32,144 bases of DNA from Lentisphaerota bacterium (GCA_012799755.1 JAAZKQ010000604.1:1-32144); one strand, 5' to 3'; shown: positions 4,401-22,374, counted from the stretch's first letter. The notes: generated by a model not told the origin, from the sequence alone. Numbers and translations: made by a program.

Positions 4401-5763
4401 CGAAGGTCTCACCCAGCAGCGCCAGGACAGAACGTTCCTGCAGATGCTTGCCGGCCGCAGCAAGGTGGAAGAGCAGCCACACCGCATAGGGCGAAAGCGG
4501 CCAGCAGCCCTTGCGGACGACATTGTGAAAGCGGCTGTCGTCTTGCCAAAGATGGTGATGCTGCGACGAGGGAAACCATTTACCAATAGACGACATAATC
4601 TGCATTGATTCTTCCCTGGCCGCATCCGTATTAAGCATGCTGTCAAGGAACGGCACATCGCGCTTTTCAATCAAATTGGCTATCAGGGTTTCCAGGTTGA
4701 TGGACAGAAAAGCCTTGTTGGCTGTCTGGTACCTGGTGACATAGCGCATGATCTCATTGCGGTGTTCGACGGCCACACGCTGGACGTAGGCATTGAGCTC
4801 AAACTGGATAAATCCCACAAAGCAGACTTTGCCAGTGTTGTTCTGCACGGCCTCAAACAAGTCTTGCAAGGCGCCGCTACCAGCTATGTGACTTCGCGTC
4901 GTCGCAAATTCCGTGTAGCGGCCAAATTCGTCGAACAAAATAAGGATGGACTTGAACGCTTTTCCCACCCCACAGTATTCGCGCGCGGCGAGGTCAATAA
5001 CATCCCGAACAGACTCACCACCATAGGCTGAGATACGGATGTTATGTTGTTCGAGCACGGTGTTAACCTGCCGGTACACCGCGTCGTCCTGTTGCTCCAA
5101 CTTGGCGATAATCTCGTCAACAGTACTGGCGTCACAGGCGCTAAGGACCGCGTTGATCAACTCAAGGTTATCCTTGGCCATTCGGAGCAAACTCTCGGCT
5201 TGCTTGAAACGCGGACGAAGCTCGTCCAGTGGCCGGGTGTTCAGCCCTCTTTTTTGCACCTGACGAATGATTTGCCGGGTCGTCTCAGAAGCGAGATCGA
5301 CACTTCGCATGCCGTTCAAGGCCAGAACCAGGCACGGCTGTTTGGTGTCGGTCAACAAGGTCCGCAAATTAGCCGCGATGTTCTGATCAGCGGCGGCCAG
5401 ACCTGCCAGAATGCTGTCCGCTTCCGAGCCGGTAGGATTGTCCAACAGCCGGCCAATGGTAAGTGCGAGGTGTGATTTGCCCGTGCCATAACCGGCGATG
5501 GCCAGCGTAAAAGGAACGTCATCCAAACCGTAGCAGTGGTCGACCACCGCTTTGACAAAACTGGCACTGTCCTGCAGGCGATGGCCATGGCTACTGCCGA
5601 TATCCGCCTGTGAAACGCCGTGGTATGTCGGCCCATGAAAAACGAATGCGGCTGAGGCCGCGGCGGCTTTCTTCTCATCGGCATCGAACCAATCAATGCT
5701 AACGGCGCCGTTAAAGAGCTTGTCGCCACGAAAACGAACCACCGAACCAAGTAATGTGGACAT
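1474..5763 (-). pseudogene. Second SspC/BrxC-like P-loop ATPase (1429 aa if intact), interrupted by an in-frame TAA at 3853-3855
   Basis: ORFs 3853..5763 and 1474..3837 are in the same frame: AAG ATT AGC ACG ACC TAA TGG CGT TAT CAG GCG GTG. Walker A AGYGTGKS, Walker B ILFDEFG, and the WPLSP, QERS and APPYG motifs parallel those in the 18095..21484 protein. Strong RBS AGGAGG at 5763; no convincing RBS at 3837. Confidence 0.72.
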
Positions 5764-5777: not shown

Positions 5778-6626
5778 CTATATCATGTCGTCATAGATCA
5801 TTTTCCAGGCCGCGTCAGCACTTTTCTTGGGATGGATCAGCCATGGCTGCATGTGCCTGTCCACGCCAATCAGGCCTTTTTGTTCGATCAGCGCCAGTAC
5901 ACGCAGAGTTTCGTCAGCATCCCAACCAGGAATACTCTTCCAGCCGGCTTCCTGGTCTAGTTCAACAACTGATAGCTGCTCATTCTTGGGAAAATGCAGC
6001 TCAATCAATCTGAGAAGCCAGGCGCCCAAGCCATAACCAAATTCATCGCGAATAGGTGTGGGCTGGCGCGTGATGACGTCGCCGTTTTCTGACAGCGCAC
6101 CGCAGGCTCCAAAGGCCGCGTTGTCTTCGTACATGCCGACCATGGGCCCAATGATGCCGGAGGCTGGGCAATCGAGCATCTGCCCCAGGTAGTTTTCGAG
6201 TTGCGTACGCGTGAACGTCATGCCCAATCGCTGCTTGCCTGGGAAGAAAGTCTGGTACCACACCTCGGCACCATGTAACGGGCTACAAAGCTGGAAATGC
6301 GCAAGCCACTGGGTTATGGGCAGCTTGAGGTAGGGATCTTCAAAAAACACCACGCGACCAAATGGCGTCAACTCGAATCGCTTAACGGCGCTACGCGGCG
6401 CCCCCACTAACGAGATCAAGCCCATGCCCCGGCAGTAATCAACAATTGCCGGGACTTTTCCGGACGATTTTCCCGTGGGAATCCCAGTTTCGGCGGCAAT
6501 GCTTTGACTGTCGCCCGCCTTGCCTGCCGCGGCGAAACGAAGTAGCGCATTGATGTACTGCCGCTCAGGCTTGAAAGTCGTATGAAAATTGCGCGCCAGG
6601 CGCGATGCATTAGCACTCAAAACCAC
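5778..6626 (-). CDS. DUF4007-family protein, divergent second SspB-like copy
   Basis: FHTTF, GKVPAIVDYCRGMGLI and LTPFG...EDPYL...TQWLAHFQL align by eye with GHQTF, GKNMVGSIQYWCELTGII and VTPFA...DPYLED..SWWLLHWRL of 21481..22374. Start is GTG 6626 or TTG 6620, overlapping the upstream gene's stop. Confidence 0.72.
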   Translation of the reverse strand: MVLSANASRLARNFHTTFKPERQYINALLRFAAAGKAGDSQSIAAETGIPTGKSSGKVPAIVDYCRGMGLISLVGAPRSAVKRFELTPFGRVVFFEDPYLKLPITQWLAHFQLCSPLHGAEVWYQTFFPGKQRLGMTFTRTQLENYLGQMLDCPASGIIGPMVGMYEDNAAFGACGALSENGDVITRQPTPIRDEFGYGLGAWLLRLIELHFPKNEQLSVVELDQEAGWKSIPGWDADETLRVLALIEQKGLIGVDRHMQPWLIHPKKSADAAWKMIYDDMI

Positions 6627-9600
6627 GTTCCTCCAAGGGCGTGATGCGTATCTTCACGGCCTTCTTGACGAGTTTGTTCCGCATGGGGTCCCATTGTTGG
6701 CCAATGGAGTAACATTCGCCCTTGCCAAGAGCGGACAATCTGCGGATCCATTCATCGGCACTTCGACGATCAATCTGGCTGAGAATCTTTGCAAAGTTTT
6801 TCATCTCTGTATCCGAGGGCCGAAAGAACAGCTGCTGGTCAGCTAAAAACATTCGGGTAATTTCATCGGCTTTCATACCACTCATGCTTTGGGTTGCGAG
6901 CATCAACGATATGCCGAATTTGCGTCCTTCTCGCAAGTATTTGGCCAAGGGGCTGTCTTCTCTGTGGTCGAGGTTTTGCACCTCATCCAACACAATGACC
7001 TTGGGGTTGGTTTTGACACCACGGGCTTGTAGGAAACCATACAGATCCCAGAGGATAAATTCGGTAATGAGCCGGCCAGAATGCGTATCCATCCCATAGA
7101 GCTGGAAAATGTTACAGAGAGTCTCTGGAGCGGAAAAAAGCTGATCCCAGTTATAGCTGCTCGGGCCGGAGGCAAAGGGGCGATCAAGAACAAAGGGACG
7201 CAACTTGTTAGATAGGGATAGTGCAGGAGATTTGCTTTCCTTGCTTTCTCTCAGCTCATCTAACATGGCTAGCATTTTCTCCAGGTCCATTTCTGTTCCC
7301 CAACGCGCAACACCATCCATGATGACTTGGTGCAGACAGGAGTATTGCTGGTCACCGATGGCATACACCGAATCAAAGAGCCCGGCTATGCGCTTAGCAA
7401 TGTTGTTGGGGGTTTCGGTGAACTCAATACCGCCATCATCCGATGTTTGTGCCAGGAAGGGATTGATTGGCAATGGATTATTGCGCACCACGTGCTGGGT
7501 GGGATGCAAAACCACCTGCGTCATCTCTTCCAACTGATTGGGCAGGAAGCCATTAGTGTAATCAACAATCAAGCTGTGCTGCTGCAACTTCTGCATCTCA
7601 CAGAGAATGGCCTGGATGGCGTAGGTCTTCCCCTGCCCCGACGAGCCAAAGATGATCATGTGGCGATTAGGAAGCTCTGGATGATTAAATTCCCAGTACA
7701 CGGGCTGGTCACCGGGAATGCTCGTACCCAGCAGAATTTTTGCCGGCTTGATGGACGATGGCAGAATAATATCCGTCTCATCGGTGGCACCAAAATCAGC
7801 AACCTGCACCAGACCGGCGGGATGTGAAACAATGACGGGGGCTATCGCCTGCGGGGATGGTGGCAGGGGCATCACGATCGACGCCGGCGTGCTGGCCCCA
7901 TCGCCTGCTATCTTCTCGCCGTCAGCAGCAGCCTTCTCAGCAGCAGCCTTCTCAGCAGCCCTCTCAGCAGCAGCCCTCTCAGCAGCGGCCCTCTCAGCAG
8001 CGGCCCTCTCAGCAGCAGCCCTCTCAGCAGCGGCCCTCTCAGCAGCAAGCTCTGCACCATCGTCGGCGCTGTCGTCATCGTCATCCTCATCGTCATCGTT
8101 TGCTGCATAATCATCTTGAGCAAATCTGCAGTCGTCACTACCCGATGGCGCTGCCAGTCCTTCGCCCTGTCCGTTGAGGCTGGACCAGTCAATTGGCACG
8201 GCATCACTACCACAGCACAGACGACGCACAAAACCACCGCCAATTTCGTAGACGTTCCCCGTAATCCCTGGCATCCCCGCGCTTGGCCAGTAATAGGAAC
8301 GCCTGATCTCGTCTTCGCCATTGATGCCAAAGAGAAAAACCGACGCCGCCCAGCTGAGCTTAAAATCGCCTTCGGCGAGGCGTTCCAAGGCGTCGCGCGC
8401 GGCTTGGTAACGCCCTCTTTCTACCTCGGTCTTGCATGCAATCAGGCGGTGCAGTTGCATCCACCAGTAGCGTTTGTCCGGCCGTTGTTCGGAGCCCGCC
8501 GTATTGGGCGCAAAAGCCGCCGCAAGCACCAGCAAACCGTTATCGATTTGCCCCTGGGCTTTGTTGACATAATCCGAGGGCTTGGAACCCAGCTTACATT
8601 CGACGAGCTGAATACGGACGTGCAAGCGTCCATCGTCCTTAATGGCGACCTGCAGCCACATAAGATCGGGTCTCGTGTTATTCTCGGCTAGATCGAACCA
8701 ATGCCGGTAGGCGTCCAAGGACACCAGTGTTTCGCAAAGCAGCGACTCGCCCTCGCCCGATTGTAGCATCATGCGTGACAGAGCATAGGCCATAAAGTCG
8801 TGAATATAATTGTCATGTACCCCCGTAGCCCGCACCAGCGACAAGCCAGAAAGGGTACTGGCAGTGGCGATGATTTTCTCAGCGCTTTCTTTACACTCGT
8901 CAGGCGTCCAACTTGCCTCGGGGACATAAAGCTCTTTAATGGCCTGGCTCACCCGACGCTGGATGTTCTCCAGGGTAAATGCCTCAGTTGAGATGGTGTA
9001 GTTATCTTCGCCTTGGTTGCCGACACCAGAACCGAACCCGATGATATCACGCTTGTTGCCGGACGTTTTGTCACCAGGTTTGATAAGGCGTTCGTCCATA
9101 TTGGGGTCAATACACACCACCCATTCGGCTTTTTCATGGAGACGATTCACTAATTCAATCCAAGGGTTGAATACGCCCGTAGCCACAACCAGCGTCCCGG
9201 GTTGCGAGGTCTTAGTACGCAAGGAGTGAAGCAAGTTAGCGTGCTTATCCGCCAACCCAAACTGCCGATTGCTGGTAATGCGCTGACGGCGGTATTGGCC
9301 ATGAGGATCATTTGTTGAACAGCAGGCTTTTTCCAGGATCGGATACATGAGTTTATGACTGGTTATGTCGAATTCATTCACCTTCTCGAAGCTACTACCA
9401 CTACAAGCACCGACAAAGTCATACAAAACGGCTATGTCAGCCTCAAAATGCTCTTTAATAAGCTTGACGAAGGCACCTTGGTCGCCTTGCTCGATAATGC
9501 GATGGGCGATGGAGAAACGGCAGTAGCGATACAGCTCATACGCCTTCTCCGTTTCGGCTGCTTCCCAACGTTCTCGCCACTGTTGCACCCACATGGCCGC

Positions 9601-12168
9601 CGCAGACTCATCGGGTGATTCCGTAAACAAGGTCACGCTTATGGCATAGGGGTGCTGGCGTTCCAGACCAAGTATATAGCGTTTGTCCTCGTCGTCATCT
9701 GTGACCTCTATCTTCTTAGCCAAATTCTTGAGATAGGCATGAACAGCGGCGATAAGGGGCTGTATGTCCTTGTTCCGATAGACTGCAATGCTCAGGCCGT
9801 CACGGGCATGCGGATGCAAGCGAAAGTAATCCAGCATCAAAAGGGTTAACTGCTTCGACTCACTGGATTCACGGAACATTTCTTTGTCACTGAAGTTTCT
9901 CTCGTCACCGGCGTCTTCGCCGTATTGCAGCTTCAGTCGGGTGGAGAGCAGCGCATCCGCCATCGGGGCCTTGCCAATACGGTGCACCAGCCCCTCTCCA
10001 CGCACATCGGTACTGAGGTTGTCGTTTTCGTCAAGCAAGCCCACCAAGGGCGATTGTATGGCCGCCAAGTCTACATAGCGCTGCCAGGCAAAAGGCTTGA
10101 AGGCATTGTTTGGTTGATCTCGCCGGATCTCTTCCTTAACCCGATTATTGAAACAGTGGAAAAGAAAGACGGTTTGTGCCTGGAACATCTCCAGAACCGA
10201 TGGATGTAAAATGGTCGCTACCCCAGAGCTTTCATGCGTTTCCGCATGCCAGCTTTCACCCAGGTCAACAGAGCGAGGATAAACGACGAGAAAAGCTCGG
10301 GTGAGCATACCCATCATTGATGACTGCGCGTTCTCCACATAAGCAGTCGCCTTCTGCATGGTCTCTTGGTAGGCCTTCCGTAGATCATGCCATCTGCCAT
10401 TTTGGGCAAAGATGGCCGTAAAAAGCCCTTGGCTTCTTGCCTCTTCAAGGAAAGTCCGGTAACACAAGGCCAGTTTTTCAAGATCACCCTTCAAGGGATC
10501 AGTCATTTTGACCCACTCGGGACTCAACAGGTTTGTCAGAACCTTGCCGCTCCCAACAGCGCTCTGGATAGCGTGGAGCAGTATCTGCCTGATCTCATGC
10601 TCCGACGAGGTATTCAAAAGTTCTTCATAATACAGGAGGTGAAAGACCGGGAGATTGTAGAGCTCTGAGGAGGCCGCGACTTTTTCGCTGGCCAGTTTGA
10701 GCAGATCAACCGACAGCCGAAATTGATGATGATCCGGGAGCAACCAGACAAAATGGCGTTTGAACGGCTCCAGGCCCCCTTGAATCTCAACGTCGAACTC
10801 AAGAGCCGGTTCAGCCGTGGAGCTGTAAGGACAGGTCATCTCCGAGTTAATGATGCTGCAGCTGATGGCAATGTCCTCGCCATCGGGACCAGCAATCAAC
10901 ACCTGGTCCTTGACTAGCTCGTCAATGCCACCAAGCAGGCGCTGGAGATAGTTCTCAGCCAGCTCGGCAGTCTCCTCATTGTCACTACTATCGTCTTGGT
11001 TATGCTTAAATCGCCGCCCAATGATGCTGATGTGCTCAATACGGCGTTCGTCTTCATGTCTGTTGCTCTTGGAGAATTCCTTCAGGGACTGCCAAAGCGC
11101 CGACAAGAGAACCTCAACCGGATTGCCATGCAAGAAATGCGGAGTATCCTTTTTCTTCGTGTTCGTCTTTGCCTTTTTAAACTTGAGAATCTTATCGCTG
11201 ATGAAGACAAAATCACAGCGCAGCAGGCGTGCTCTGTCACTGGAGTTCTCGTTCCGAATGTACTCAATCAAGCCTTCAAGGAACGCCTCGGCGGACTGGT
11301 AAGGACCAATAACGTCATCATCCAGCGTGAAGGGAAGCGGCTCGCCCTCATCAAGGGACTCGCGAAGGCCTGCAACCGCCTCTATCGCCTTTTTTTTCGG
11401 TGATGGTTCCATGAAGAGATTATAGTTGAAAAATCCCTCGGCTTTATTGATATAAGGCTCAAGTCTCTTTCTCGTACGGATGGGAAAACGGGCGAGCACG
11501 GGCAAGCCAAAATCTTGCAGGTTGGCCAGCAGATAACCAGGAACTTCGGCGACACTGTCAAGATGGCTGAAGTCCTGCTTGCTTAGCCAGTTGTCAATGC
11601 TGATCAAATCGCCGCGACCACAGGCGAAGATCGGCGTTAGGATGCGGTTGATGGTACTAAGGTCTTTCTCACTGATATCGGTAAAGCCCGATGCCTGCAA
11701 TTTTTGCATAATCCAGCCCTTGAAGCTCGGAGCCTTTTCATTCCCCCATTTCATTTCACTTTCCCAGATGGTGGCCGGATCGCAGCGATGAAAGTCAGCC
11801 AAGCTGGAGGCATCAGTCACCCGATCGGCGCCACATAAGATGATGATATGGCATTTGTTGGGTGCCGCGGGCAGATTGCGATAGTGGGTCAGATTGCCAT
11901 GCTCATCATACCAGCCCATGCTCCGTAGGGTGTCTTTGCCCGTGTCGGACCAAGTATCGGCAACCACAGAAGCAACTTTCAAGGTCAGCTGCACATCGGG
12001 AGCAGCGTAGGTAGCGGCATGTATGGCTCCCGCGACTGCCAACATGGAGCCTTCGGGCAAATCGGGGATCGTGAACAGCATTTTGGGGCTGCTGACCAGC
12101 GGGGCCTCCCGATACTTGTCTAACTCTCCCGTGATATGCGCTGCGTAGCATTGAGCCAAGTAATTCAT
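6610..12168 (-). CDS. sspH: DndH/SspH-like large protein (1852 aa) with C-terminal HerA/FtsK-type ATPase and candidate PD-(D/E)xK domain
   Basis: Walker A IFGSSGQGKT, Walker B IVLDEVQN, HerA-type REGRKFG and LATQS, plus RPD...VECK. It is the third gene of the F-G-H trio. Start moved to ATG 12168, which gives an ATGA overlap with the upstream gene. The symbol rests on analogy and synteny. Confidence 0.68.
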   Translation of the reverse strand: MNYLAQCYAAHITGELDKYREAPLVSSPKMLFTIPDLPEGSMLAVAGAIHAATYAAPDVQLTLKVASVVADTWSDTGKDTLRSMGWYDEHGNLTHYRNLPAAPNKCHIIILCGADRVTDASSLADFHRCDPATIWESEMKWGNEKAPSFKGWIMQKLQASGFTDISEKDLSTINRILTPIFACGRGDLISIDNWLSKQDFSHLDSVAEVPGYLLANLQDFGLPVLARFPIRTRKRLEPYINKAEGFFNYNLFMEPSPKKKAIEAVAGLRESLDEGEPLPFTLDDDVIGPYQSAEAFLEGLIEYIRNENSSDRARLLRCDFVFISDKILKFKKAKTNTKKKDTPHFLHGNPVEVLLSALWQSLKEFSKSNRHEDERRIEHISIIGRRFKHNQDDSSDNEETAELAENYLQRLLGGIDELVKDQVLIAGPDGEDIAISCSIINSEMTCPYSSTAEPALEFDVEIQGGLEPFKRHFVWLLPDHHQFRLSVDLLKLASEKVAASSELYNLPVFHLLYYEELLNTSSEHEIRQILLHAIQSAVGSGKVLTNLLSPEWVKMTDPLKGDLEKLALCYRTFLEEARSQGLFTAIFAQNGRWHDLRKAYQETMQKATAYVENAQSSMMGMLTRAFLVVYPRSVDLGESWHAETHESSGVATILHPSVLEMFQAQTVFLFHCFNNRVKEEIRRDQPNNAFKPFAWQRYVDLAAIQSPLVGLLDENDNLSTDVRGEGLVHRIGKAPMADALLSTRLKLQYGEDAGDERNFSDKEMFRESSESKQLTLLMLDYFRLHPHARDGLSIAVYRNKDIQPLIAAVHAYLKNLAKKIEVTDDDEDKRYILGLERQHPYAISVTLFTESPDESAAAMWVQQWRERWEAAETEKAYELYRYCRFSIAHRIIEQGDQGAFVKLIKEHFEADIAVLYDFVGACSGSSFEKVNEFDITSHKLMYPILEKACCSTNDPHGQYRRQRITSNRQFGLADKHANLLHSLRTKTSQPGTLVVATGVFNPWIELVNRLHEKAEWVVCIDPNMDERLIKPGDKTSGNKRDIIGFGSGVGNQGEDNYTISTEAFTLENIQRRVSQAIKELYVPEASWTPDECKESAEKIIATASTLSGLSLVRATGVHDNYIHDFMAYALSRMMLQSGEGESLLCETLVSLDAYRHWFDLAENNTRPDLMWLQVAIKDDGRLHVRIQLVECKLGSKPSDYVNKAQGQIDNGLLVLAAAFAPNTAGSEQRPDKRYWWMQLHRLIACKTEVERGRYQAARDALERLAEGDFKLSWAASVFLFGINGEDEIRRSYYWPSAGMPGITGNVYEIGGGFVRRLCCGSDAVPIDWSSLNGQGEGLAAPSGSDDCRFAQDDYAANDDDEDDDDDSADDGAELAAERAAAERAAAERAAAERAAAERAAAERAAEKAAAEKAAADGEKIAGDGASTPASIVMPLPPSPQAIAPVIVSHPAGLVQVADFGATDETDIILPSSIKPAKILLGTSIPGDQPVYWEFNHPELPNRHMIIFGSSGQGKTYAIQAILCEMQKLQQHSLIVDYTNGFLPNQLEEMTQVVLHPTQHVVRNNPLPINPFLAQTSDDGGIEFTETPNNIAKRIAGLFDSVYAIGDQQYSCLHQVIMDGVARWGTEMDLEKMLAMLDELRESKESKSPALSLSNKLRPFVLDRPFASGPSSYNWDQLFSAPETLCNIFQLYGMDTHSGRLITEFILWDLYGFLQARGVKTNPKVIVLDEVQNLDHREDSPLAKYLREGRKFGISLMLATQSMSGMKADEITRMFLADQQLFFRPSDTEMKNFAKILSQIDRRSADEWIRRLSALGKGECYSIGQQWDPMRNKLVKKAVKIRITPLEERGFEC
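7923..8048 (-). repeat. Coding 15-bp tandem repeat (about 8 units) encoding (AAAER/K)n
   Basis: The plus strand has repeated CAGCAGC[A/G]GCC[C/T]TCT. The translation is LAAERAAAERAAAERAAAERAAAERAAAERAAEKAAAEKAAAD. Confidence 0.92.
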
Positions 12169-13823
12169 TTCCCGTCTCCCCCATTGTCGATTGGATTGTG
12201 AACCAACGCACACGAATCAGAGAGCTGAACCAGAAAGCCGGCGCCTTCCAGCATGGTCAATAGCCACTTGTCAATATCTGCCGGGAGATGGAGGCCCTGC
12301 TTTTTGCTCTCCAAATTGGCCTTATTCAGGCCGACAGCGTCAAGCACAAGTCCGTGCCGCGATTTCAGCTGCTTCTTGAAGGTGTCATAGGTGAGACGGC
12401 CATTGTGCGGTACGATGGTGACGACCAAGTAACGCAGGAGCTGCTCGTTGAGCACAAAGCGCGCCCCAGCACTTCTCTTGGGAACAATCAGGCCAATGCG
12501 TTTGGCCAGGCTGGTAAACAACTTCCAGCCGTAGGCGTCATCGGCGTTTTTGTAGATGCTCTCAAGCGATTTCTGCTTGCCGCTGGCGTGTTCAGCCGAT
12601 GCTTTCACCTCATCCAAAATCTCTTCTACTCGCAATGAGGCAAAGATCATTTTCCGGATATCTTTGACCGACTGCTGAGACAAACGACGCACTGCAGGCT
12701 GGACCTCATCGGGAGCCGAGAGAGCCAGGAGATACCCAAGCCCAGTGTCCGGCGCATCAGCTTGTTTGGTCACACGGGCACTTTGACTGGCCAGGGCGCG
12801 AAGCACCTGCATGCAGCATGCCGTCTCAAGCAACGCAAGGCGATCCATGATATCAAGTTTTGCTGTCAACAGCCTGCGCAACTCAACAGCAAAGAGATAA
12901 CCCTCCCGCCAACTGTCCGCATTGCAATAGCCGGCTTCAACATATCGATTCGCTTGATCTTTTCTGTCTATGTCAGTATACGATGCCGTCTCGTCCTCCA
13001 GGCCGACATCTATCAGCTCCGCAATCTCAGTCAAGGTTTTCGGGCAGGATTTCTCACGTAGTTGACCAAAAGCCTGGTTCAAACTTTCACGAAGCCAAGC
13101 GGGATCGCGCTCGTTATCTGTGAAACCGAGGTCATCGCCATCACACCATTGCCCAATGCTTTCAGAACTCTGCCGTAAGGCATTGCAGACCTGCAAGTAG
13201 AGGAGCTCACCGCCACGGGCGAGAAATAGATGCTGGGTCATATTGAAAACTGAAGATAGGTTTGATAAAAGATCGCACCAATTCTGAGAAGAGAGTTTTT
13301 TGGCTTTCGACTCGCTCCATATTGTTTCGCCTGCGAGGAAAGCAGGTGACACTGGCAGGAAGCTCTGTGCGCACCACGTCCGTCCGCCGCCGGCGCCCTG
13401 GAAGCCCATGAACAGATTGGTCAAGGTTCGAACCACGTCCTCCTCCTGGCTGGCACCGTTTATGTCTATGCAAGACTTGAGGTTATCAACCAACTCTTGG
13501 TAGTGTTCCCTATGCGACGCGTGTCTGGTCTCCAACTGCGATGCGCCGAGGAAGGAGAAGAGTTTTAGATTCAGACGGGCCTTGGGCGAATACTGTAACT
13601 TTGTCCAAGAACAAGCATCGCTTGTCAGCGGAGGTAAAGCGTCAGAAACAACATCTCCGTCGTTGACTTTTTTTGGGGAAAAAACAAGCAGCAGTAATTC
13701 CACCAGGAACTCGCAGGGCGACTGATCTTTGTATAGCCGTTTCCCGTAAAGCAGAAGGGAAGGATTTGTTACACTGCCTGTTTCATCTGAACGAGAACTC
13801 TCAGTTGGGAAGTACTCAAGCAT
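12165..13823 (-). CDS. sspG: DndG/SspG-like protein (552 aa)
   Basis: The C-terminal IGLIVPKR...FVLNEQLL...RHGLVLD...GFLVQLSDSCALV resembles the DndG C-terminus (xSDSxxAxxV). It sits between the F-like and H-like genes. Start is ATG 13823 with RBS GGAGGTG and an 8-bp overlap with the upstream stop. Confidence 0.6.
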   Translation of the reverse strand: MLEYFPTESSRSDETGSVTNPSLLLYGKRLYKDQSPCEFLVELLLLVFSPKKVNDGDVVSDALPPLTSDACSWTKLQYSPKARLNLKLFSFLGASQLETRHASHREHYQELVDNLKSCIDINGASQEEDVVRTLTNLFMGFQGAGGGRTWCAQSFLPVSPAFLAGETIWSESKAKKLSSQNWCDLLSNLSSVFNMTQHLFLARGGELLYLQVCNALRQSSESIGQWCDGDDLGFTDNERDPAWLRESLNQAFGQLREKSCPKTLTEIAELIDVGLEDETASYTDIDRKDQANRYVEAGYCNADSWREGYLFAVELRRLLTAKLDIMDRLALLETACCMQVLRALASQSARVTKQADAPDTGLGYLLALSAPDEVQPAVRRLSQQSVKDIRKMIFASLRVEEILDEVKASAEHASGKQKSLESIYKNADDAYGWKLFTSLAKRIGLIVPKRSAGARFVLNEQLLRYLVVTIVPHNGRLTYDTFKKQLKSRHGLVLDAVGLNKANLESKKQGLHLPADIDKWLLTMLEGAGFLVQLSDSCALVHNPIDNGGDGK

Positions 13824-16107
13824 CGAACACCTCCAGCCTGCCTTTCTGAACGGTAAATTCTTGCCCGCAGAAAGCATGATTGGTTTTGAGACGCACGAGC
13901 AGGATGCTGTCATCAGAATCGGTCTTTGCGCGTGATAAGATGGCATTTTTGAAGCGATCCAGGCGCTGCAGATATGATGCGTCAAGCATTTCACCCAACT
14001 CGCCATTATGCCGCATCATAACAAAATCTAGAAATGGCAGCTTCAAGGGTAACTCGATCTTATCGTACTGGTTCCTGCTGCAGATGAGCAGATCCTGTCG
14101 TTGTTGCATCAGTGCGTTGCCGCTCGTTTCCAGGACAAGCTCAAATGCATCTTTCCAGTTGACGGCGGCAAGAACGACTTGCGCGCTCTGGCGGATTTCA
14201 TTACTGCGCCGATTCAAGGTGATGTAGAGCCGAGTGTCCGTCTGTGATGAACCTTCCGGCAGGCGTACGCCAGTGAAGTACTCCTGTAAAACCCGGAATA
14301 TCTGTTTATCTAGGATAGCTTTTTGCGGGGTCGGCAAGCCGTGATTGCTATCTTGCCAGGACAGCCAGTCCAATATCGCGGGGGAATTGAGGTATTGGCT
14401 CAAGTAATACCGCTGATCTTCTGGAAATTCATAGAGGAAATAGTAGAGGCGGCGGACTTGCTCGCGGGCCCGCGCGCTTTCCTCCTCATCGTGGGCCATA
14501 CTCGATCCTTTTCGCAGCAGCGAAATGATGGCGCCCTGCAGGAGAGGTATCTTGATATCTGGCTCAAGACTTCTGTTGCGTAGCCACATGCCACGCTCCC
14601 AGCCTGGGCTGGGACGAGAACCATAGTGCTGCTCGGTGATCGCCCGGACGGCTTTCATCTCCTGGGCATCGGGGTCCGCCTTCACCCCGTCATGGCCAAA
14701 GAAACGATTGGTGAACAGATAGGCCGTTGGCGAGAGCGTACGGTCCTTTTTCAGCAGCTCCTGGATGGTAACTTCATTCAGACCGGACGTGATGATATAA
14801 GCCAGATGCTCGGTCAGCTGCCGCATGGTCAAACGCGTGCCATATTCGTATAGCCGGCGGTAGGCCAAAAATATCCGCGATACCGCCAAGTCCTGCATGT
14901 CCCAAAGTACCCTGACGTTGGTGTAGACAGGACAACGCTCGGCATTTTCACAGCTGCCACAGCATTGCCAGCGCTCTTTAGCAAGCATCTTCGCAAAAAT
15001 GCTTTGCGCAATGTCAAGATTGTCAAGTTGCGCCAAGTTGAAAACCAGGAAGTGCAAGTCATCAGCCAAGGCGAGTTCGCCCTGCCCATCCTGACTGTCG
15101 ATGGCGTTGAGCACGGCGTCCTCTAGTTCCACCGGGCTTTTTCTTATATTGGCGTGCTGACTTTTGACCAAATCCAGCAGCGTGCCGGTATTCGATACCA
15201 ACAAAAAACGGCGGCTCCGTCCCTTGAGTTCCTTGATCAGTTCGTGGTCTTGCTGCCGATTGCGCTCACTCAAGTCTTTGATGATCGTGACGCCATTGCA
15301 TTCTTCACGATCCAGCATGGGGGAACTCAATGGCGCCACGGAAGGCACCCCCCGCAAGCGCTTCAATATCTCCAACGCTATCGTCGTCTTGCCATCACCA
15401 GCATGACCAGTCAAGATGACGTGATGACCACGCGGAGAGACTAACTCGTCGTAAATGATATTCGCTAATGGATGAGATACCTGTATCAACGAAAAATCTT
15501 CAGCGCAGGCCTGCGACTCTGCCAAGGCATTCTCATTGCCACCACCACTGCGCTGTAAGGTATTCAAATAACGAACAAATGAATTGCATGAAGGAGGGAT
15601 AAGATTAAGAGCATACTGAGTAGAACCCATTGATTGATTGATGTTCAACGTCTCACCCCCGTACAATTCGATTAAGGTTTTCCGGGCCAATAATCTATGT
15701 TCTTTATTCTGTAAAAACAAGTGTACTCTATTGTTTACTTTTGCGCCACTAAAAACATCAATAATACGTTTTTTTGTGAAACGAGAATGCTTGATGTTGA
15801 GAATGTCATTGTACTCTTCTTGTTTATCTGGTTTGATTAAAAGAACATATATTTTGTCATTTTGAAGATAATAAAAGGGAGCCTCAATCATTGATGATAA
15901 AAAATCTGATTGCGGTGATAACTGATTATACCAGTATTCAAATAGAGACTCTAACTGGGAGTCTAGATTAATAATATCATCACGTCCCGGTGATTCTTCA
16001 TATAAATCAACGATTGCTAGAAGCAAGGCAAATTTATGTGGTTTTGGTTCCCCATCAAATTGTCCTGCACGAATGTTCCGAAATAATTCAAGCACTTCGT
16101 CATTCAT
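13816..16107 (-). CDS. sspF: DndF/SspF-like P-loop NTPase with N-terminal SBD-like (PT-DNA sulfur-binding) domain (763 aa)
   Basis: Walker A LTGHAGDGKT, IIKDLSE, VSNTGTL and a CxxCxxxxxCP cluster. The N-terminal ~150 aa contain KPHKFALLLAIVDL...LFEYWY...EAPFYYLQND. Start is ATG 16107, overlapping the desulfurase stop (ATGAATGA). Confidence 0.62.
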   Translation of the reverse strand: MNDEVLELFRNIRAGQFDGEPKPHKFALLLAIVDLYEESPGRDDIINLDSQLESLFEYWYNQLSPQSDFLSSMIEAPFYYLQNDKIYVLLIKPDKQEEYNDILNIKHSRFTKKRIIDVFSGAKVNNRVHLFLQNKEHRLLARKTLIELYGGETLNINQSMGSTQYALNLIPPSCNSFVRYLNTLQRSGGGNENALAESQACAEDFSLIQVSHPLANIIYDELVSPRGHHVILTGHAGDGKTTIALEILKRLRGVPSVAPLSSPMLDREECNGVTIIKDLSERNRQQDHELIKELKGRSRRFLLVSNTGTLLDLVKSQHANIRKSPVELEDAVLNAIDSQDGQGELALADDLHFLVFNLAQLDNLDIAQSIFAKMLAKERWQCCGSCENAERCPVYTNVRVLWDMQDLAVSRIFLAYRRLYEYGTRLTMRQLTEHLAYIITSGLNEVTIQELLKKDRTLSPTAYLFTNRFFGHDGVKADPDAQEMKAVRAITEQHYGSRPSPGWERGMWLRNRSLEPDIKIPLLQGAIISLLRKGSSMAHDEEESARAREQVRRLYYFLYEFPEDQRYYLSQYLNSPAILDWLSWQDSNHGLPTPQKAILDKQIFRVLQEYFTGVRLPEGSSQTDTRLYITLNRRSNEIRQSAQVVLAAVNWKDAFELVLETSGNALMQQRQDLLICSRNQYDKIELPLKLPFLDFVMMRHNGELGEMLDASYLQRLDRFKNAILSRAKTDSDDSILLVRLKTNHAFCGQEFTVQKGRLEVFDA

Positions 16108-17230
16108 GTTGATTCTCAAGTAGTTTATGAACTGTATTAATAAAAAGATCAAGCCCATCCAAAGACGACTGAGAACCGAAAGATATCCTAACCACGCATT
16201 CCCTGTAACCTCCTTCAACAATTAGGTTGATTACATGTGATACTCCAACAGCTCCATTACAGGCCGAACCCCTTGAAATACATATCGTTTTACAGTTTGC
16301 CACAAGGACATCAGAGTTAACTTTAGGAAAAATCACACTTAGTGTTCCCGGAAGAGATTTTTCAATAGGGGTTATTACTCTCGCAGTTGGAATTTTTTCA
16401 TGAAGAATACCACGGAAACGTGTCGTTAGCTCATCAAGAAAACGCCTTTTCTTATCCAAATTCATTGCGGCAATTTTGCATGCTTCGCCGAAGCCGACGA
16501 TAGCAGGCACGTTTAGCGTTCCGGGTCTGAGATCAGCTTCCTGTCCTCCCCCGCGAAAGGGTCTTACCCAAGGCCAGCAGCGAGCACCGCCACGGACAAA
16601 GAGCGCGCCGATGCCCTTGGGGCCATACAGTTTGTGGGCGCTGAAAGACGCAAAATCGCAATTGATCTTCAAGACGTCAAATGGTATTCGTCCCAGCGCC
16701 TGCGCTGCATCGCTGTGGAAATACGCGCCATTGTCGTGTGCAAGGCGCGCCAGTTCGGCAATGGGCTGGATGGTACCGATCTCGTTGTTGGCTGCCTGGA
16801 CGGAGACCAGCAAGCAGCGTGGCGTGATAAGACGGGCGGCCGCCTCGAGGTCAACGGCGCCATTCTTATCAACTGGCAACTCAATGAGCTCGAAGCCGCG
16901 TTCCTGAAGCAATCGCGCTGGCTCCAGGACAGACTTGTGTTCAATGGCGGATACGGCGATCTGCCGGCGCTCCTGCAGCGGAGAGAGGAGTACCCCCAGG
17001 AAGAGCAGATTATTACTTTCGGTTGCGCCGGAGGTAAAGACAATTTCCTCTGGGAGGGCATTGGCCAGGGTTGCGACCTGCTGGCGTGCTTTGTTGACGG
17101 CAGCGGCGGCACGGCGCCCCATGATGTGACTGCTGGCGGGATTGCCAAAGTCGTCGTTCCAGTAGGGGCGCATGGCTTCCACGACTTCGGGAGCGCATGG
17201 CGTGGTCGAATTATGGTCCCAGTAGATCAT
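16100..17230 (-). CDS. sspA: Cysteine desulfurase (SspA/DndA/IscS-like sulfur donor)
   Basis: YWDHNSTTP, FTSGATESNN, IEHKSV, HSDAAQ, PLP lysine in SAHKLYGPKG, RPGT and catalytic GSAC. Embedded in the PT operon. Start is ATG 17230 or TTG 17239. Confidence 0.88.
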   Translation of the reverse strand: MIYWDHNSTTPCAPEVVEAMRPYWNDDFGNPASSHIMGRRAAAAVNKARQQVATLANALPEEIVFTSGATESNNLLFLGVLLSPLQERRQIAVSAIEHKSVLEPARLLQERGFELIELPVDKNGAVDLEAAARLITPRCLLVSVQAANNEIGTIQPIAELARLAHDNGAYFHSDAAQALGRIPFDVLKINCDFASFSAHKLYGPKGIGALFVRGGARCWPWVRPFRGGGQEADLRPGTLNVPAIVGFGEACKIAAMNLDKKRRFLDELTTRFRGILHEKIPTARVITPIEKSLPGTLSVIFPKVNSDVLVANCKTICISRGSACNGAVGVSHVINLIVEGGYRECVVRISFGSQSSLDGLDLFINTVHKLLENQHE

Positions 17231-17241
17231 TCTGCTCAATC

Positions 17242-18075
17242 CTACAAATGACAGATCGTGCAGGCGATGGCCTCGCCGCTATCGGCGCCGTCACCCCATA
17301 CATCCTTAAGTTTTTGATGCCCCTTGAAAGCAAGGGCGTTGCGTTCTTTGCGTTTCAGGTAGTCGGCTTTAATCTCATCGGCGCGCTGGGCCAACTCATC
17401 CAGCGACTCGCCTTGATTCCACGTGTAGCGCTCTCCCGTCACGGGATCAACTTTCTCATAGGCCTTGGCTTTTTCGAATAAGTCTGGGTGGTTCTCCAAC
17501 AGGCCAATCCACTCGCGCTTCTGCTGAAAAAAACAAAAATAGCAGCCTGATCGAGAGCGCCAGGAGTAGTATTTCGGCAATCCCAGACCGGCCTCCTCAA
17601 GTATCCTCACGACGTCAGCATGACGAATGTTGTTCTCAATAAAGGGAAAGACGGCCTTGATGTTCGGCTTCGTCGATATATACCCCGTGCGATGCGGCTC
17701 GTCAGCCCGAATACCAACATAGCTCACAACCTCGTCGTCGCCGATATACTGCTCGTAGGACTTGAGTTTGAGCATTCTGGTACACCAGCGGGTTTGTGCG
17801 TCAGGCAAAACCCCTTTATACATGTCCAGGTAAAATTTGAAGTCCTTGATAGATTTTAGCCACTGAATTTTCTTGCCCAAAAAGGCTTCTAGCAAACCTA
17901 AGTATTCATAGGTTTCATCAAGCTCTTCTCCGGTATCACAGAAGACGTATTCGACATTGGGAATCTTGCCACGGAGGTACACAGCAAGGGCCGAGCTGTC
18001 TTTCCCCCCGGATAAGGCGATAATATGCCGCACGGGCTTAGCTTCTTTATCTGATGTGTGCGTAGCGACAGGCAT
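17242..18075 (-). CDS. sspD: PAPS-reductase-family protein (SspD/BrxP-like PT-installing enzyme)
   Basis: PP-loop SGGKDS, FCDTG, RWCTRMLK, GIRADE, SRSGCYFCFFQ and C-terminal CTICHL. Lies between an SspC-like ATPase and a desulfurase. Confidence 0.85.
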   Translation of the reverse strand: MPVATHTSDKEAKPVRHIIALSGGKDSSALAVYLRGKIPNVEYVFCDTGEELDETYEYLGLLEAFLGKKIQWLKSIKDFKFYLDMYKGVLPDAQTRWCTRMLKLKSYEQYIGDDEVVSYVGIRADEPHRTGYISTKPNIKAVFPFIENNIRHADVVRILEEAGLGLPKYYSWRSRSGCYFCFFQQKREWIGLLENHPDLFEKAKAYEKVDPVTGERYTWNQGESLDELAQRADEIKADYLKRKERNALAFKGHQKLKDVWGDGADSGEAIACTICHL

Positions 18076-18094: not shown

Positions 18095-21000
18095 TCACGT
18101 TTGGTCTGATTCAAAGGTCGTCAGTAGTTCTCGCAAGGCGGCAACCAGCGCCCGCGGGCTGCCTTGCGGGGCAAGCTGGCGGATCTGGCTTTCAATGGAT
18201 AAACGTATGTGATCCTTTTGACGCTGTTCCTCTCCGGACAGGACCACTGCACCGTCACCATAATTTTGCCAGACCCGTTGGAAGAGCTCACCCATCCCCT
18301 GCGCCAAGCCGGTAAAGCTGTCAATGTCCATGTCGCTCCAATGCTCAAACGGCCGGTTGCAGATCAAGGACAGGGCGGCAACAGGACTGTGCTCGTTCCC
18401 AGCGGCATTGCTGACGCAAGTCAAGAACGGCGAAAGGATGTCGTGCTTCATCCGTGGCAAGAGCCAGGCAGCCCGCCGTTCGAGTTCCAGCCAGGCGTCG
18501 CTGCCCGTTGCCAGTCCGCAAGCACGTAGCAGCACATCGCGTTTCTCCGTCTGCAGCGCAGGCGCAAAACCAGCCAGCGAGGACAGGCTGACATTGAGCT
18601 GGTTGAAAAAGGACTCGACGTCCTTATCACGTTGTTCCCCAGCCCGGAAGGGCGCGAGGCCAAAGCAAGCCGGCAGGTCTTCGAACAAGAGCTGGTCTGG
18701 CGCGGCCGCCAGGAGCAACTTGTCGCGAACGTCCATCGCGGTGTGATCGCCGAGCTTGGCGGTTTTTTGCGTCAACGGCGGCAGGCTGTTGAGCATCCGA
18801 TAGAGCGCACGCACGACTGACGCTGTCTTCGCGGGCTGCTTCAGGCCACGCGCGAGGCGCTCGACGACGGCTTGGCGAATGCCATCGACCTTGGCGCCGG
18901 ATATAGCAAATAGCTCCGGCCGGCGTTGCAACAATTCCAGATGGCCGGTCTGCACTTCAGGAACGAAGGTCTTCTCGCGGTAAAGAAATAGTTCATCCTG
19001 GTAGTGGATATAAAAGGCTGTGAAGAGTATAGGATGAACGCCTTCCGGCAGGCCGTAAGGCACTTGAGCGAGGCGGCTGAACAACTCATCAAGAGGAAGC
19101 TGCGCGATGTCCTCACCGAAGATGCTCTCTTCGAGCAGGTCCCAGCAAGGGCGTAGGTTGCAGGGGTTGTCAGCGGCAGGTGGGCATATTTCCCACTGTT
19201 GGGTATCCGGATTGAAGACGTGCATGCCCGCCGCACGCATAACCGACTCGTAGATGCTTCGTTCAGGCGGATAGCCTTCAATGCCCAGGCACTCAACACC
19301 GCTGTGGGTCAGCATGCGCTCCAGCAGGCTTCGGCGGGCGCCAGCCGCCGCGCTGGAGAGCTTGCCGCGAACGACCAGTTCGTTGCGGACTCTAGGGCTG
19401 AGGTGGTAAATGTGGTCACAGGCGTCCGAGAGCATGCGGTTGACATCGACGGGTTGTCGCGGGTGTTGATTGCGGCCGCGCCAGAGCCATTTGCAGGCAT
19501 TGCCGGCGGGTGCTGGTCGGGGATCAAGCAGTCCCTGTAGTTGCTGAGCGATACGTTGTTCGCCCATGGCCAGGCGGAGACTGAGTTCGCGGCGGGCGAT
19601 GCGGTCGTCGCGCAGCTCGGGAGTGTTCTTCTCGGCCCAGCGCAGGCAGGCCAGTTCTTCGGCAATGCCGCGCAGAGAGTCGATCTGCGTGGGCAGCGCG
19701 ATGATGAGCCGGGGGTGGTCCTGGCTGATTTGCAGTGCGTCCTTGAGCAAGGCGTCCACATTCGCTTGTGGGAGGAGGACGATGATGGCGCCGGCAGCGT
19801 CGGCAAAGTCCTCGGCTCTGCTGAGCAGGCTGCTACTGAGGGCATCGGCATAGAACAGCTGAAAGAAGCGGTTGATGCCGGTCTGCAGGCTGTGGCGGCG
19901 GGCGACCAGCGTGCGCTGGGGCAGGTGCTGGCAGAGCGTCTCCAGCGGCGATACGCTCTCCAGCTGCAGTACGCGGCGGCCTTCATTGAGGCGTGCGAGC
20001 AGGTCCACGTCGCTGCCTTCCCACACGCGGTAGGAATTGTCCAGGCGCCGGTGGGTAATGATGGACTGCCGGCGCAGGAATTCCAGATCATCGGTAAGGA
20101 TATCGGGATTGCCCACCGTGCTGCCCAGGATGTTCGCCGTGGCGCGCAGGGGGCAGATCTCGGCAAGGACATTCATCAGCGCGATGTCCTGAACGAGCTC
20201 CAGCTGCGCGGGGCTGAGTCCATGCCGGCTGTTGATGATGTCGTTGGCTTCCAGCAGGCGCTTGCCGTGCGCGACCCGCGCCAGACTGGCCTCGAAATTG
20301 GCCATGAGGTACGCGAACAGCGCGTGCAGGCGGATGAAGGGATCGGCGGGCGTCATAGTCTGGTCCAGCTGGTATTGGAAGGCGTAGGGCTCGGAGCTGG
20401 TCAGATACGAGAAGATGGACCGCTCATTCTGCGCGAGGCGCCGGAACAGATAGGGCATGGCCAGCAGCAGGGTCGGATGTAGTGGCCAGGCGCGACGAGC
20501 CAAGGCCGCAAACTCGTTGTAATCAAGACCGATGGGCAGCGGCAGCTGCTTGCTGCGAATGGCTTCCAGCGCGGCGGCGAGACCCTGGCGGAATTCCTCG
20601 GGCAGATCGTTGCGGGGCTGCAGGGCCTCGGCGATGAGCCGGATGGTGGTACCGGCCGACTCGTTGAACTGAATGGACTGAAAGCGCTCCTGGACCTTAT
20701 TCCACTCGTTGCGCATGGTCCGGTCTGACAACTCAACGTAGTCATCGAACATCTGATGCAGGGTGATGATGAACAGCAGCGGTATGGCCGTCTGCCGGCT
20801 GGCGTACTCAGCCAGCTCCTGGAAAATATAGACGTCGCCGCCCGCGCGGTCCTGCAGGGCATACTCGAGGGTCTTACCGGCTTCGTCAACCAGCAACAAC
20901 ACGCCGGCGTACTGCTGGGCCTTGGCCTCGCGCTGGATTTCTCCGAGGAACGCGACGACGACGGCCGTGTCGGTCCAATTCTTCGCGCTGATGGCGATTC

Positions 21001-21484
21001 CCAGGCGGCTGCGAATGTCCAACACCCTGGCGCCCTGCTTCATCTCCTTAAGGGCGTCAAGCAGGCCCTCCAACAGCAGCTGGGTGATGGGCCGGCGCCG
21101 CGCCGTGACGGGTATGAGCAAATAGCCGTTGTCGCCGGTCGCCGGCTGGCACAAGGCGTGGAAGCGCTCCCGCAAGTAGGCGTTGTCGCCCTGCAGAGCT
21201 TTGTCAAGATGTTCAGTGGCGGCGGCATTGCGCGTAAGCAGTTGGCAGAGGAACACGGCGAAGGCCGATTTGCCGGTGCCGTAGGGCCCAATCAACGCAA
21301 AAGCCCGCTGGCCATTCTCGGCCAGCAGGCCGTCGCTGAGCCGCTCCAATGCTTGGGCGACATTCGGGGTGACGATGTAGCCATCGGCACTGCTGCGGTT
21401 ATGCCAGTCATTGCGTAAATTGACCGACCGCAAAAAGCGCGGCGCGACAGCGACGTAATCAGATCGTTTCGTCTCGGCAGTCAT
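18095..21484 (-). CDS. sspC: SspC-like P-loop ATPase (1129 aa)
   Basis: RFLRSVNL, Walker A GPYGTGKS, Walker B LLVDEAGK, ITLHQ, WPLHP, QNERSIFSYL, WEGSDVD and PYGL. Start is ATG 21484 with an ATGA overlap with sspB. Confidence 0.8.
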   Translation of the reverse strand: MTAETKRSDYVAVAPRFLRSVNLRNDWHNRSSADGYIVTPNVAQALERLSDGLLAENGQRAFALIGPYGTGKSAFAVFLCQLLTRNAAATEHLDKALQGDNAYLRERFHALCQPATGDNGYLLIPVTARRRPITQLLLEGLLDALKEMKQGARVLDIRSRLGIAISAKNWTDTAVVVAFLGEIQREAKAQQYAGVLLLVDEAGKTLEYALQDRAGGDVYIFQELAEYASRQTAIPLLFIITLHQMFDDYVELSDRTMRNEWNKVQERFQSIQFNESAGTTIRLIAEALQPRNDLPEEFRQGLAAALEAIRSKQLPLPIGLDYNEFAALARRAWPLHPTLLLAMPYLFRRLAQNERSIFSYLTSSEPYAFQYQLDQTMTPADPFIRLHALFAYLMANFEASLARVAHGKRLLEANDIINSRHGLSPAQLELVQDIALMNVLAEICPLRATANILGSTVGNPDILTDDLEFLRRQSIITHRRLDNSYRVWEGSDVDLLARLNEGRRVLQLESVSPLETLCQHLPQRTLVARRHSLQTGINRFFQLFYADALSSSLLSRAEDFADAAGAIIVLLPQANVDALLKDALQISQDHPRLIIALPTQIDSLRGIAEELACLRWAEKNTPELRDDRIARRELSLRLAMGEQRIAQQLQGLLDPRPAPAGNACKWLWRGRNQHPRQPVDVNRMLSDACDHIYHLSPRVRNELVVRGKLSSAAAGARRSLLERMLTHSGVECLGIEGYPPERSIYESVMRAAGMHVFNPDTQQWEICPPAADNPCNLRPCWDLLEESIFGEDIAQLPLDELFSRLAQVPYGLPEGVHPILFTAFYIHYQDELFLYREKTFVPEVQTGHLELLQRRPELFAISGAKVDGIRQAVVERLARGLKQPAKTASVVRALYRMLNSLPPLTQKTAKLGDHTAMDVRDKLLLAAAPDQLLFEDLPACFGLAPFRAGEQRDKDVESFFNQLNVSLSSLAGFAPALQTEKRDVLLRACGLATGSDAWLELERRAAWLLPRMKHDILSPFLTCVSNAAGNEHSPVAALSLICNRPFEHWSDMDIDSFTGLAQGMGELFQRVWQNYGDGAVVLSGEEQRQKDHIRLSIESQIRQLAPQGSPRALVAALRELLTTFESDQT

Positions 21485-22374
21485 TTCCCATCCCCCCGGC
21501 GATAATACGCGCTCAGCAACGACTCGGCCGCGCCGCCCTCCAGACGGCAATGGACTTGGGCAATGCCGGCCGATTCTGTAAAATTGATGGCCGCGCCCCA
21601 GGCGGGTTCCTCTTGCAACTCCTCAATGGCCTCAATCAGGGTGTTTTCATCCAGCATGAAGACTTGGCCCGGACTGCCCTCTTTGTACAGCACGCTCTGG
21701 ATGGTCATCGCTTTTTTGTTCGCGCGAGCAAAATACTCACTGAGCGCATAGCCGATGATCGCCGCCGGCAATGACGCCTTGGCGCCAATGGCAAAACGAT
21801 AGAAATCGCCGCCATTCATCGCCTGGATGAGCCCCAACTCCTGAAACGGACAGTCGAAGCTGTCATCGCCGCTCTTCTTTTTCTCAAAGCGCCGGCTGCC
21901 GCAATAAGACCGCACATAGCAATCGACGTCGCGCATGACCACGCTGTCCGCCGGCGGCTTCTTGCCCTCAGCCCAGAAACGCAACAGCGCCTCGGCCACG
22001 TCCTGCCGCGTGAACTCCGGCTTGCGGATGTGCGAAAACATCGCTGTGCCGGCGGTCGCGTAATACGGATTGGCCATGAGTCGCCAATGCAAGAGCCACC
22101 ACGACGCCTGGTCTTCCAAATACGGGTCCCAGCCGCCGTCCTCAGCCAGCAAGGCCCGGGCAAAAGGCGTGACCGCGCCGTCGGCAATGATGCCCGTCAG
22201 CTCACACCAGTACTGAATGCTGCCGACCATGTTCTTGCCAACCCCGAGGTCGACGATGGCCGTTTCAGCAGCAAAACTCTTCTCCCCAAGCGTGTACTCG
22301 TAGCCCTTCTGCAACCACCCATATCGTAGCGAAAAGGTCTGATGACCCGATAATTTCACCCGCTGTTTGCTCAT
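21481..22374 (-). CDS. sspB: DUF4007-family protein (SspB)
   Basis: SGHQTFSLRYGWLQKG, LGVGKNMVGSIQYW, WDPYLED...WLLHWRL, CPFQELGLI and SPGQVF are typical DUF4007 motifs. It is the first gene of the operon. Confidence 0.88.
   Translation of the reverse strand: MSKQRVKLSGHQTFSLRYGWLQKGYEYTLGEKSFAAETAIVDLGVGKNMVGSIQYWCELTGIIADGAVTPFARALLAEDGGWDPYLEDQASWWLLHWRLMANPYYATAGTAMFSHIRKPEFTRQDVAEALLRFWAEGKKPPADSVVMRDVDCYVRSYCGSRRFEKKKSGDDSFDCPFQELGLIQAMNGGDFYRFAIGAKASLPAAIIGYALSEYFARANKKAMTIQSVLYKEGSPGQVFMLDENTLIEAIEELQEEPAWGAAINFTESAGIAQVHCRLEGGAAESLLSAYYRRGDGK

Follow-up and report, generated by a model that had tools for sequence, protein, structure and literature searches.

In the SspABCD-SspFGH system of Vibrio anguillarum FF-93, an sspBCD(A) phosphorothioate (PT) writer is accompanied by SspF, which carries a Walker A motif, SspG and an FtsK-like SspH (Wang et al. 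2021, PMC8092258). Unrestrained SspFGH has been shown to damage PT-free DNA, and protection needs PT that is sequence-specific (PMC8092258). ATP hydrolysis and translocation by DndFGH are also reported to be repressed by PT (summarised in PMC11662687). Sulfur-binding domains (SBDs) are known from SBDHga of Hahella ganghwensis (PDB 8H0L; Hu et al. 2023, PMC10602919) and from ScoMcrA-SBD (5ZMO; Liu et al. 2018, PMC6224610), where they sit on a nuclease of their own and restrict foreign PT DNA. Such PT-dependent type IV endonucleases hold the nuclease in the same chain and usually lie away from a PT writer; fewer than 3.6% of SBD-HNH enzyme homologues occur near dnd clusters (PMC7461809). Published systems are compared here as they appear in the sections covered of each report. 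The present study concerns a 32,144-nucleotide stretch of DNA from a Lentisphaerota bacterium (GCA_012799755.1 JAAZKQ010000604.1:1-32144; hereafter the window). In contrast to the endonucleases on both counts, it carries an SBD on the nuclease-free P-loop subunit, F, of a PT-writing operon. We propose that this SBD is an accessory reader of the host's own PT mark that brakes the FGH complex. We put the probability of this reading at roughly 58%, chiefly because the SBD type covaries with short patches of the writer SspD and of SspG.

The F gene is an open reading frame (ORF) of 763 amino acids on the minus strand (16107-13816, starting at 16107). It encodes the SBD (residues 1 to ~152; 15650..16107, minus), a low-confidence linker (residues ~154-174; 15586..15649, minus) and an SspF/DndF-type P-loop body (residues 175-763; 13816..15585, minus). 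A first-pass annotation had proposed an SBD within the first ~150 residues from the motifs KPHKFALLLAIVDL (H24, K25), LESLFEYWYNQL, EAPFYYLQND (P77) and, at the start of the body, NSFVRYLNTLQ (N175); all four lie in this frame. Residues 1-171 matched SBDHga 8H0L at E 7.6e-8 in a phmmer search of PDB sequences (aligned residues 9-102), while a profile of 51 SBD sequences reached E 7e-39 with 8H0L and E 0.35 with ScoMcrA-SBD 5ZMO. An AlphaFold2 model of full-length F, built from a 48-sequence alignment (mean pLDDT 85), consists of a compact N-terminal domain, the linker (pLDDT <50 at residues 154-172) and the P-loop body. Two 8H0L chains were its sole Foldseek matches with E <0.001 (E 1.6e-6; TM by target 0.84-0.86); 5ZMO was matched with a probability of 1.00 but at E 0.045 and a TM by target of 0.62. 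A single-sequence AlphaFold2 model of the SBD (pLDDT 45.5) was discarded for this aligned full-length one.

The Hga pocket residues H25, K26, L75, P76 and H79 (PMC10602919) map to H24, K25, A76, P77 and Y80 of the window SBD, with A76 and Y80 filling the two variable pocket positions. Identity to Hga is only 24-31%. The fold and the His-Lys...Pro pocket are common to the window SBD, SBDHga and ScoMcrA-SBD. Compared with SBDHga, the SBD type found in the window has a longer, basic L4 loop and is without the R70/N72 contacts. An Arg/Lys-rich loop, RFTKKR, occupies residues 109-114. The isolated window SBD gave zero matches in the local Pfam, NCBIfam and PADLOC libraries. PF26340, which we take to be the SBD family, was precomputed on 6 of 120 F homologues. 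Fold, pocket and homology to a characterised SBD thus confirm, at the level of sequence and predicted structure, the identity of the N-terminal domain. The remainder of F begins with a PADLOC SspF match (E 2.8e-28 over residues 175-473) that starts at profile position 1; P-loop matches in Pfam were all weak, and so were the AAA+ matches of the model in Foldseek (E 5e-3 or worse). Read from the sequence, it has the features of the derived P-loop kinase described for DndF (PMC10853773): Walker A GHAGDGKT (234-241), the Walker B strand LLVSN (302-306), ending in Asn, and IKD at the acidic end of strand 2. G234, K240, D278 and N306 are invariant in 48 homologues. Family library scans detected no HNH, NERD or other nuclease domain in the 763-residue protein, in agreement with the annotated picture of an SBD carried by an NTPase-type body in place of HNH.

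The fusion is real, because contigs of other runs cross the SBD-F junction (X4, 12721-16731; X5, 15274-16152; X3, 15524-16812). Together with homologues that carry an N-terminal extension, they rule out an assembly artefact. Among the best 120 of 685 homologue matches, counting the window once, 88 of the 119 others carry at least 150 N-terminal residues, and some of the 29 short homologues may have miscalled starts. We further compared 76 GTDB loci, mostly from metagenome-assembled genomes, taken from the best 80 of 157 confirmed stretches; six are interrupted by a contig end, leaving 70 informative. The SBD is fused to F in 60 of these, 41 in the short form seen in the window and 19 in a long form, SBD-NERD-kinase-kinase-F. 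It is split or truncated in two (truncated in L005) and lacking in eight. SspD is encoded upstream in all 54 fused loci with upstream sequence. The SBD-F fusion is therefore the norm in this clade, and the SBD is nevertheless dispensable. No close relative of F was found among 72,556 plasmids (best identity 24-27%). In a FastTree phylogeny rooted on two distant SspFs, short and long forms are interleaved; given a long-branch warning, we claim no order of events. The best 150 SBD-profile matches in a 50%-identity library comprise 31 SBD-F proteins, 22 long forms, 14 partial SBD-NERD proteins, 12 SBD-DUF4007-like proteins, 45 proteins of at most 200 residues and 26 others, including HNH and NOV_C nucleases. 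Six proteins (P0139, P0140, P0149, P0184, P0190 and P0208) hold two SBD-like stretches and no recognised nuclease domain.

Unsupervised clustering divided the F-fused SBDs into two types, ~21% identical. The first has an R-P-H/Y-x-P motif and a short GGP loop; the other, to which the window belongs, has I-E-x-P and RFTKKR. Across 61 SBDs, P77 is present in 61/61, H24 in 59/60 and K/R25 in 58/60, and in these alignments conservation within the domain peaks at the His-Lys/Pro pocket. The SBD as a whole is the fastest diverging of eight parts compared (mean distance 0.72 vs 0.47-0.65). Type-specific positions include loops that touch DNA in SBDHga. Where Hga has the DNA-contacting N72, one type has Arg (32 of 32 domains), a third type has Gln (24 of 24) and the window's type mostly has a hydrophobic residue. 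In 57 of 59 loci, the DNA encoding the SBD has a lower GC content than that encoding the F body (0.34 vs 0.52 in the window); since the difference is general, we rejected it as proof of a recent swap in this strain.

The 35 complete loci gave trees of F, H, SspB and SspC on which the SBD type changes 13 to 14 times; shuffled labels change 12 times on average. SspD without residues 47-112 does not follow the SBD type either (15 changes against a shuffled mean of 17.8); the patch by itself does, with 4 changes. SspD residue 100 could be read in 53 of the 61 SBD loci: all 28 with the first SBD type have E/D, and all 25 with the window's type have R/K. Residue 86 is K/R with the former and Y/F with the latter, with no exception in 49 de-duplicated rows. 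Independent pairs agreed on SBD type and residue 100 in 14 of 14 cases on the F tree (p 1.2e-4) and in 13 of 13 on the SspC and G trees. A leave-one-out column scan of nine proteins found predictive columns (at least 0.8) in SspD (six, within residues 79-100), SspG (two) and SspA (one), and none in SspB, SspC, the F body, H or the two downstream genes. The SspA column lies in the 3' end that is exchanged together with the SBD. In SspG, positions 170 and 199 have a predictive value of 0.88 each; 170/199 are mostly Asn/Arg with the first SBD type, and Lys/Arg/Ser and mostly hydrophobic with the window's. Whole-protein distance correlations of the SBD with writer or effector (rho 0.02-0.14) had seemed to argue against matching, and we dropped that case because the signal sits in the short SspD patch.

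In the window, this patch comprises SspD residues 79-100 (17776..17841, minus; Y86, V89, D92 and R100, beside an RWCT motif), and the SspG segment comprises residues 170-199 (13227..13316, minus). Y86 and R100 are shared with three gammaproteobacterial SspDs. From the covariation, we infer that SspD 79-100 is a candidate determinant of sequence specificity. The only solved structure matched by SspD, chain C of PDB 21FY (PptA; E 5.4e-5), aligns across the covarying patch; a literature search for PptA gave no paper. A search of E. coli with the sspD of the window gave zero matches. A complex prediction of the SBD with SspD scored 0.00 and was counted neither for nor against binding.

Near-identical operons show the same association. 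L015 and L023 are ~93-100% identical in most 150-base windows over 18 kb, and identity drops at the SspD patch (0.57), at the sspA 3' end plus SBD (0.43-0.48) and at the G N-terminus (0.53-0.74). Between these three patches lie ~1.2 kb and ~1.6 kb of 95-100% identical DNA, so a single exchanged tract is insufficient. L018 and L019 repeat the three drops, and L034 and L070 differ at the SBD and G. The 3' third of sspA (16100-16450 in the window) is low in GC like the SBD, and it was exchanged with the SBD between L015 and L023. These patterns suggest recombination that initiates within conserved sspA sequence and terminates at the conserved beginning of the F body.

SBDs of the same family are also fused to a DUF4007-like protein in a second, BREX-like set of loci (L083-L137), with the order sspB, sspC, sspD, [SBD], DUF4007-like gene, small gene, 1400-residue SspC-like ATPase, PglZ, BrxL and sspA. 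Examples are L094 (4794-20849) and L104 (4870-20911), and the SBD is either stand-alone or fused. A methyltransferase was not seen among the clustered ORFs, with no search aimed at one. Among the 43 of these loci with a readable SspD motif, obtained with a query that favoured SBD-bearing loci, 20 have the third SBD type (QxxPP), with R100 in 20 of 20, and two have an RxHxP-type SBD, with E or Q100 in both. No SBD was called in the other 21, some of which are short contigs. Thus the FGH arm and the BREX-like arm, which are unrelated, both begin with an SBD directly behind sspD(A), and in both the SBD type still goes with the SspD patch. BREX type 4 and ssp-brx hybrids (Yuan et al. 2026, PMC12914056; Rakesh and Krishnan 2026, PMC12839542) have in common with these loci a PAPS-reductase writer, DUF4007, a BrxC-like ATPase, PglZ and BrxL, and an mcrA-like gene has been placed inside one of their PT-writing operons. 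L083-L137 differ from them in that sspBCD is complete and that an SBD, either free-standing or joined to DUF4007, comes first in the PglZ/BrxL arm. The term 'SBD' is absent from the main texts of PMC12914056 and PMC12839542.

How might these parts work together? By analogy with known systems, SspA and SspBCD would place sulfur on a fraction of host sites, and F, G and H would assemble into a complex that moves along DNA and nicks it, with an ATPase that PT represses, as reported for DndFGH. The SspD patch would pick the motif, and G and the SBD would recognise the same motif. An SBD bound to sulfur would slow or stop the complex on host DNA, and unmarked phage DNA would be nicked by the nuclease in H. 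If SspD, G and the SBD share one motif, the three patches must change jointly for a new specificity to arise, as is seen in the near-identical operons; a common DNA motif would be the simplest account of their joint change. A wider proposal, which we advance tentatively and at somewhat less than even odds, is a modular, swappable Ssp specificity code resembling that of type I restriction-modification. The ~20-residue SspD patch would pick the marked sequence, and the SBD cassette and SspG patch would read it, with at least two specificities exchanged many times; standing before FGH and PglZ/BrxL arms, the SBD cassette would be a general self-mark sensor and would supply sequence-specific PT readers and writers.

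Several observations weigh against our preferred reading. F can do without the SBD, which is absent from canonical SspF and from the eight informative loci mentioned above, and in the 19 long-form loci it is followed by an intact-looking NERD nuclease, a layout like that of a foreign-PT nuclease. The link to SspG, at 88%, is incomplete; L013 and L027 differ mainly at the SBD, with mild divergence of SspD and G; and among the BREX-like loci in which an SBD was not called, some of them short contigs, 15 carry K/R86 and E/Q100. The window SBD is alone among the 61 in having Tyr, not Trp, at position 87. Because the loci on which the SspD residue was first noticed also supplied its counts, these are descriptive; controls come from the column scan and the BREX-like system. 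Ssp systems are reported to make CpsC mainly in CCA (PMC12914056), and two Ssp specificities are for this reason a prediction. Finally, with two motifs, a one-to-one pairing of SBD and SspD is also expected of a reader that avoids the host's mark.

This last possibility is in our view unlikely. Under it, the SBD would recognise PT in motifs that the host does not write, and would direct FGH (in the long form, NERD) against invaders carrying the mark of a rival Ssp or Dnd system. Restriction of foreign PT DNA has been seen for every SBD enzyme tested, and such enzymes have been proposed to coexist with a writer whose sequence context differs (PMC7461809). The adjoining NERD domain, the tolerated loss of the SBD, its fast divergence and its frequent exchange would all suit such a role. 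However, G, which belongs to the same complex, changes along with the SspD patch, so that one shared motif is simpler than two opposite ones, and the short form has no nuclease beside the SBD. Moreover, SBDHga binds all natural PT contexts, including CpsCA, which would make self-avoidance hard, a weak argument at 24-31% identity. The first-pass annotation had left open whether the domain senses self or extends targeting to foreign PT-modified DNA; the covariation with SspD and SspG has strengthened the former option, and the latter stands as this rival. The same covariation would fit a reader of the host's own mark with the opposite sign, by which host PT licenses or positions the complex, as with SspE, or by which the NERD/kinase backup of the long form is turned suicidally on the marked host chromosome. 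The NTPases of SspE and DndI are stimulated by PT, and N-terminal DndF fusions have been interpreted as suicidal co-effectors (PMC10853773). We consider this quite improbable, as canonical SspFGH is toxic without PT and hence restrained by it (PMC8092258), and as a complete arm is kept in the loci that lack an SBD.

Covariation could also arise from protein-protein contact, with the SBD or G docking on SspD, or from co-transfer of a cassette, without shared recognition of DNA. Between types, charges are exchanged at SspD positions 86 and 100, which can happen at residues of an interface or of an internal salt bridge; the 3' end of sspA moves together with the SBD; and the lower GC of the SBD in 57 of 59 loci would agree with transfer. 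Such an origin is nonetheless very unlikely, given the ~1.2 kb and ~1.6 kb of near-identical DNA separating the patches in L015/L023 and given type-specific SBD positions that fall on the DNA-contact loops of Hga while the sulfur pocket is conserved. There is scarcely any probability that the SBD in the window's strain is a decaying, functionless remnant. This would be suggested by the replacement of Trp87 in the window SBD only, by the truncation in L005 and by the absence of the domain from several relatives. However, H24, K25, P77, F78, L81, R109 and T111 are intact, the profile score of the window SBD (163 bits) is typical, and its type matches the SspD type of its operon. Furthermore, a 99% identical protein differs from F at seven positions, none of them in the SBD.

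The operon of the window lies entirely on the minus strand, in the order sspB, sspC, sspD, sspA, F, G, H, second DUF4007-like gene and second SspC-like gene, so that the PT writer announced by the first-pass annotation does adjoin F. SspB (DUF4007; 21481..22374) matched PADLOC SspB at E 1.2e-80 and Pfam PF13182, the ATPase SspC (18095..21484) PADLOC SspC at E 5.4e-289, SspD (PAPS-reductase-family PT writer; 17242..18075) PADLOC SspD at E 1.8e-109 and the cysteine desulfurase SspA (16100..17239) PADLOC SspA at E 7.5e-119. The sspA stop overlaps the F start, and F, G and H are consecutive, with overlapping stops and starts. The SspG-like subunit (12165..13823; 552 residues; PADLOC SspG E 1.4e-23) is divergent from canonical SspG. 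In the SspH/DndH-like subunit (6610..12168; 1852 residues; PADLOC DndH E 5.1e-54, SspH E 2.3e-21), the sequence shows a PD...ExK nuclease-type motif, and a HerA/FtsK ATPase with HerA-type Pfam matches makes up the C-terminal domain. In the linker before the latter domain, at residues ~1375-1415 (~7900-8030), an AAERA/AAEKA repeat tract follows an acidic run, and its length differs in contigs of two other runs. In L034 (12225-21620), the G 3' end and H 5' end are apparently duplicated locally within the operon, which may be an assembly issue.

The second DUF4007-like gene (5778..6626; PF13182 E 2.7e-7) is kept after H throughout the clade and is followed by the second SspC-like ATPase (1474..5763); both stand after H in nearly all loci with enough flank. 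They covary with neither the SBD nor the SspD type, which counts against a role as sequence-specific readers. In this assembly only, an in-frame stop (3853-3855, minus) divides the second SspC-like gene into parts of 636 and 787 residues. All four other runs have a different base at 3855, and relatives carry a single ORF of ~1400 residues; probably the assembly is wrong here or the stop is peculiar to this strain. F, G and H match canonical models weakly (E 1e-21 to 1e-28), and we thus regard the downstream genes as a divergent five-gene arm. Unlike SspABCD-SspFGH, with three genes and an F of ~600 residues, it has an F of 763 residues with an SBD and two extra conserved genes after H. Canonical SspF of E. 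coli C11 and of Ca. Tenderia has no SBD. In L062/L078, L064/L079 and L012/L080, an SBD-less five-gene arm has a distant writer set convergent downstream, and an SBD was not found in the fetched stretches of these three. Distances in writer and arm correlate at 0.14-0.45, compared with 0.73-0.92 within each; the two appear to be exchangeable modules. The SBD and ssp set of the window are the only ones found in its genome (88% complete), which yielded no dndC and no second ssp set. Upstream of the island (24521-31829) lie a carbamate-kinase-like ORF and leucine-biosynthesis-like genes, named from their translations and not from a family scan.

A recent report on DndF N-terminal fusions (Rakesh, Aravind and Krishnan 2024, PMC10853773) includes 'wHTH' and 'wHTH-NERD-inactive kinase-active kinase' arrangements, to which our 19 long-form loci are alike; elsewhere in that paper, SBD is equated with wHTH. 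In its sections covered here, the fused domains are backup co-effectors, G is the proposed PT discriminator and no link to SspD variation is drawn. Hu et al. (2023, PMC10602919) have described HNH-less SBDs and, as one clade (3%), SBDs accompanied by a kinase and an unknown domain. The layout has therefore been largely anticipated in print by these wHTH fusions and the SBD-kinase clade. The rarity implied by the first-pass annotation does not hold, as SBD-F is the usual form in this clade, the long form matches an architecture in print since 2024 and HNH-less SBDs were already described. The fusion by itself is thus a modest finding; the three-way specificity covariation is strong and unreported in the literature searched. 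Those searches, with most subscription papers and the 2024 supplement outside their scope, found no description of covariation among SBD, SspD and SspG, and no paper in which SBD, SspF and phosphorothioate all occur.

The PT literature covered here names two open questions: how FGH senses PT with 10-15% of sites marked, and which writer subunit chooses the motif, the latter unanswered by a BrxC swap. The present clade offers a structurally understood reader on F and near-identical natural operon pairs that differ mainly in three patches, so that both sensing and motif choice become small swap experiments. If the SBD does read the host's own mark, an Ssp motif other than CCA is predicted. SBDs would then shift from being detectors of foreign PT to being parts of the PT-writing hosts' own defense.

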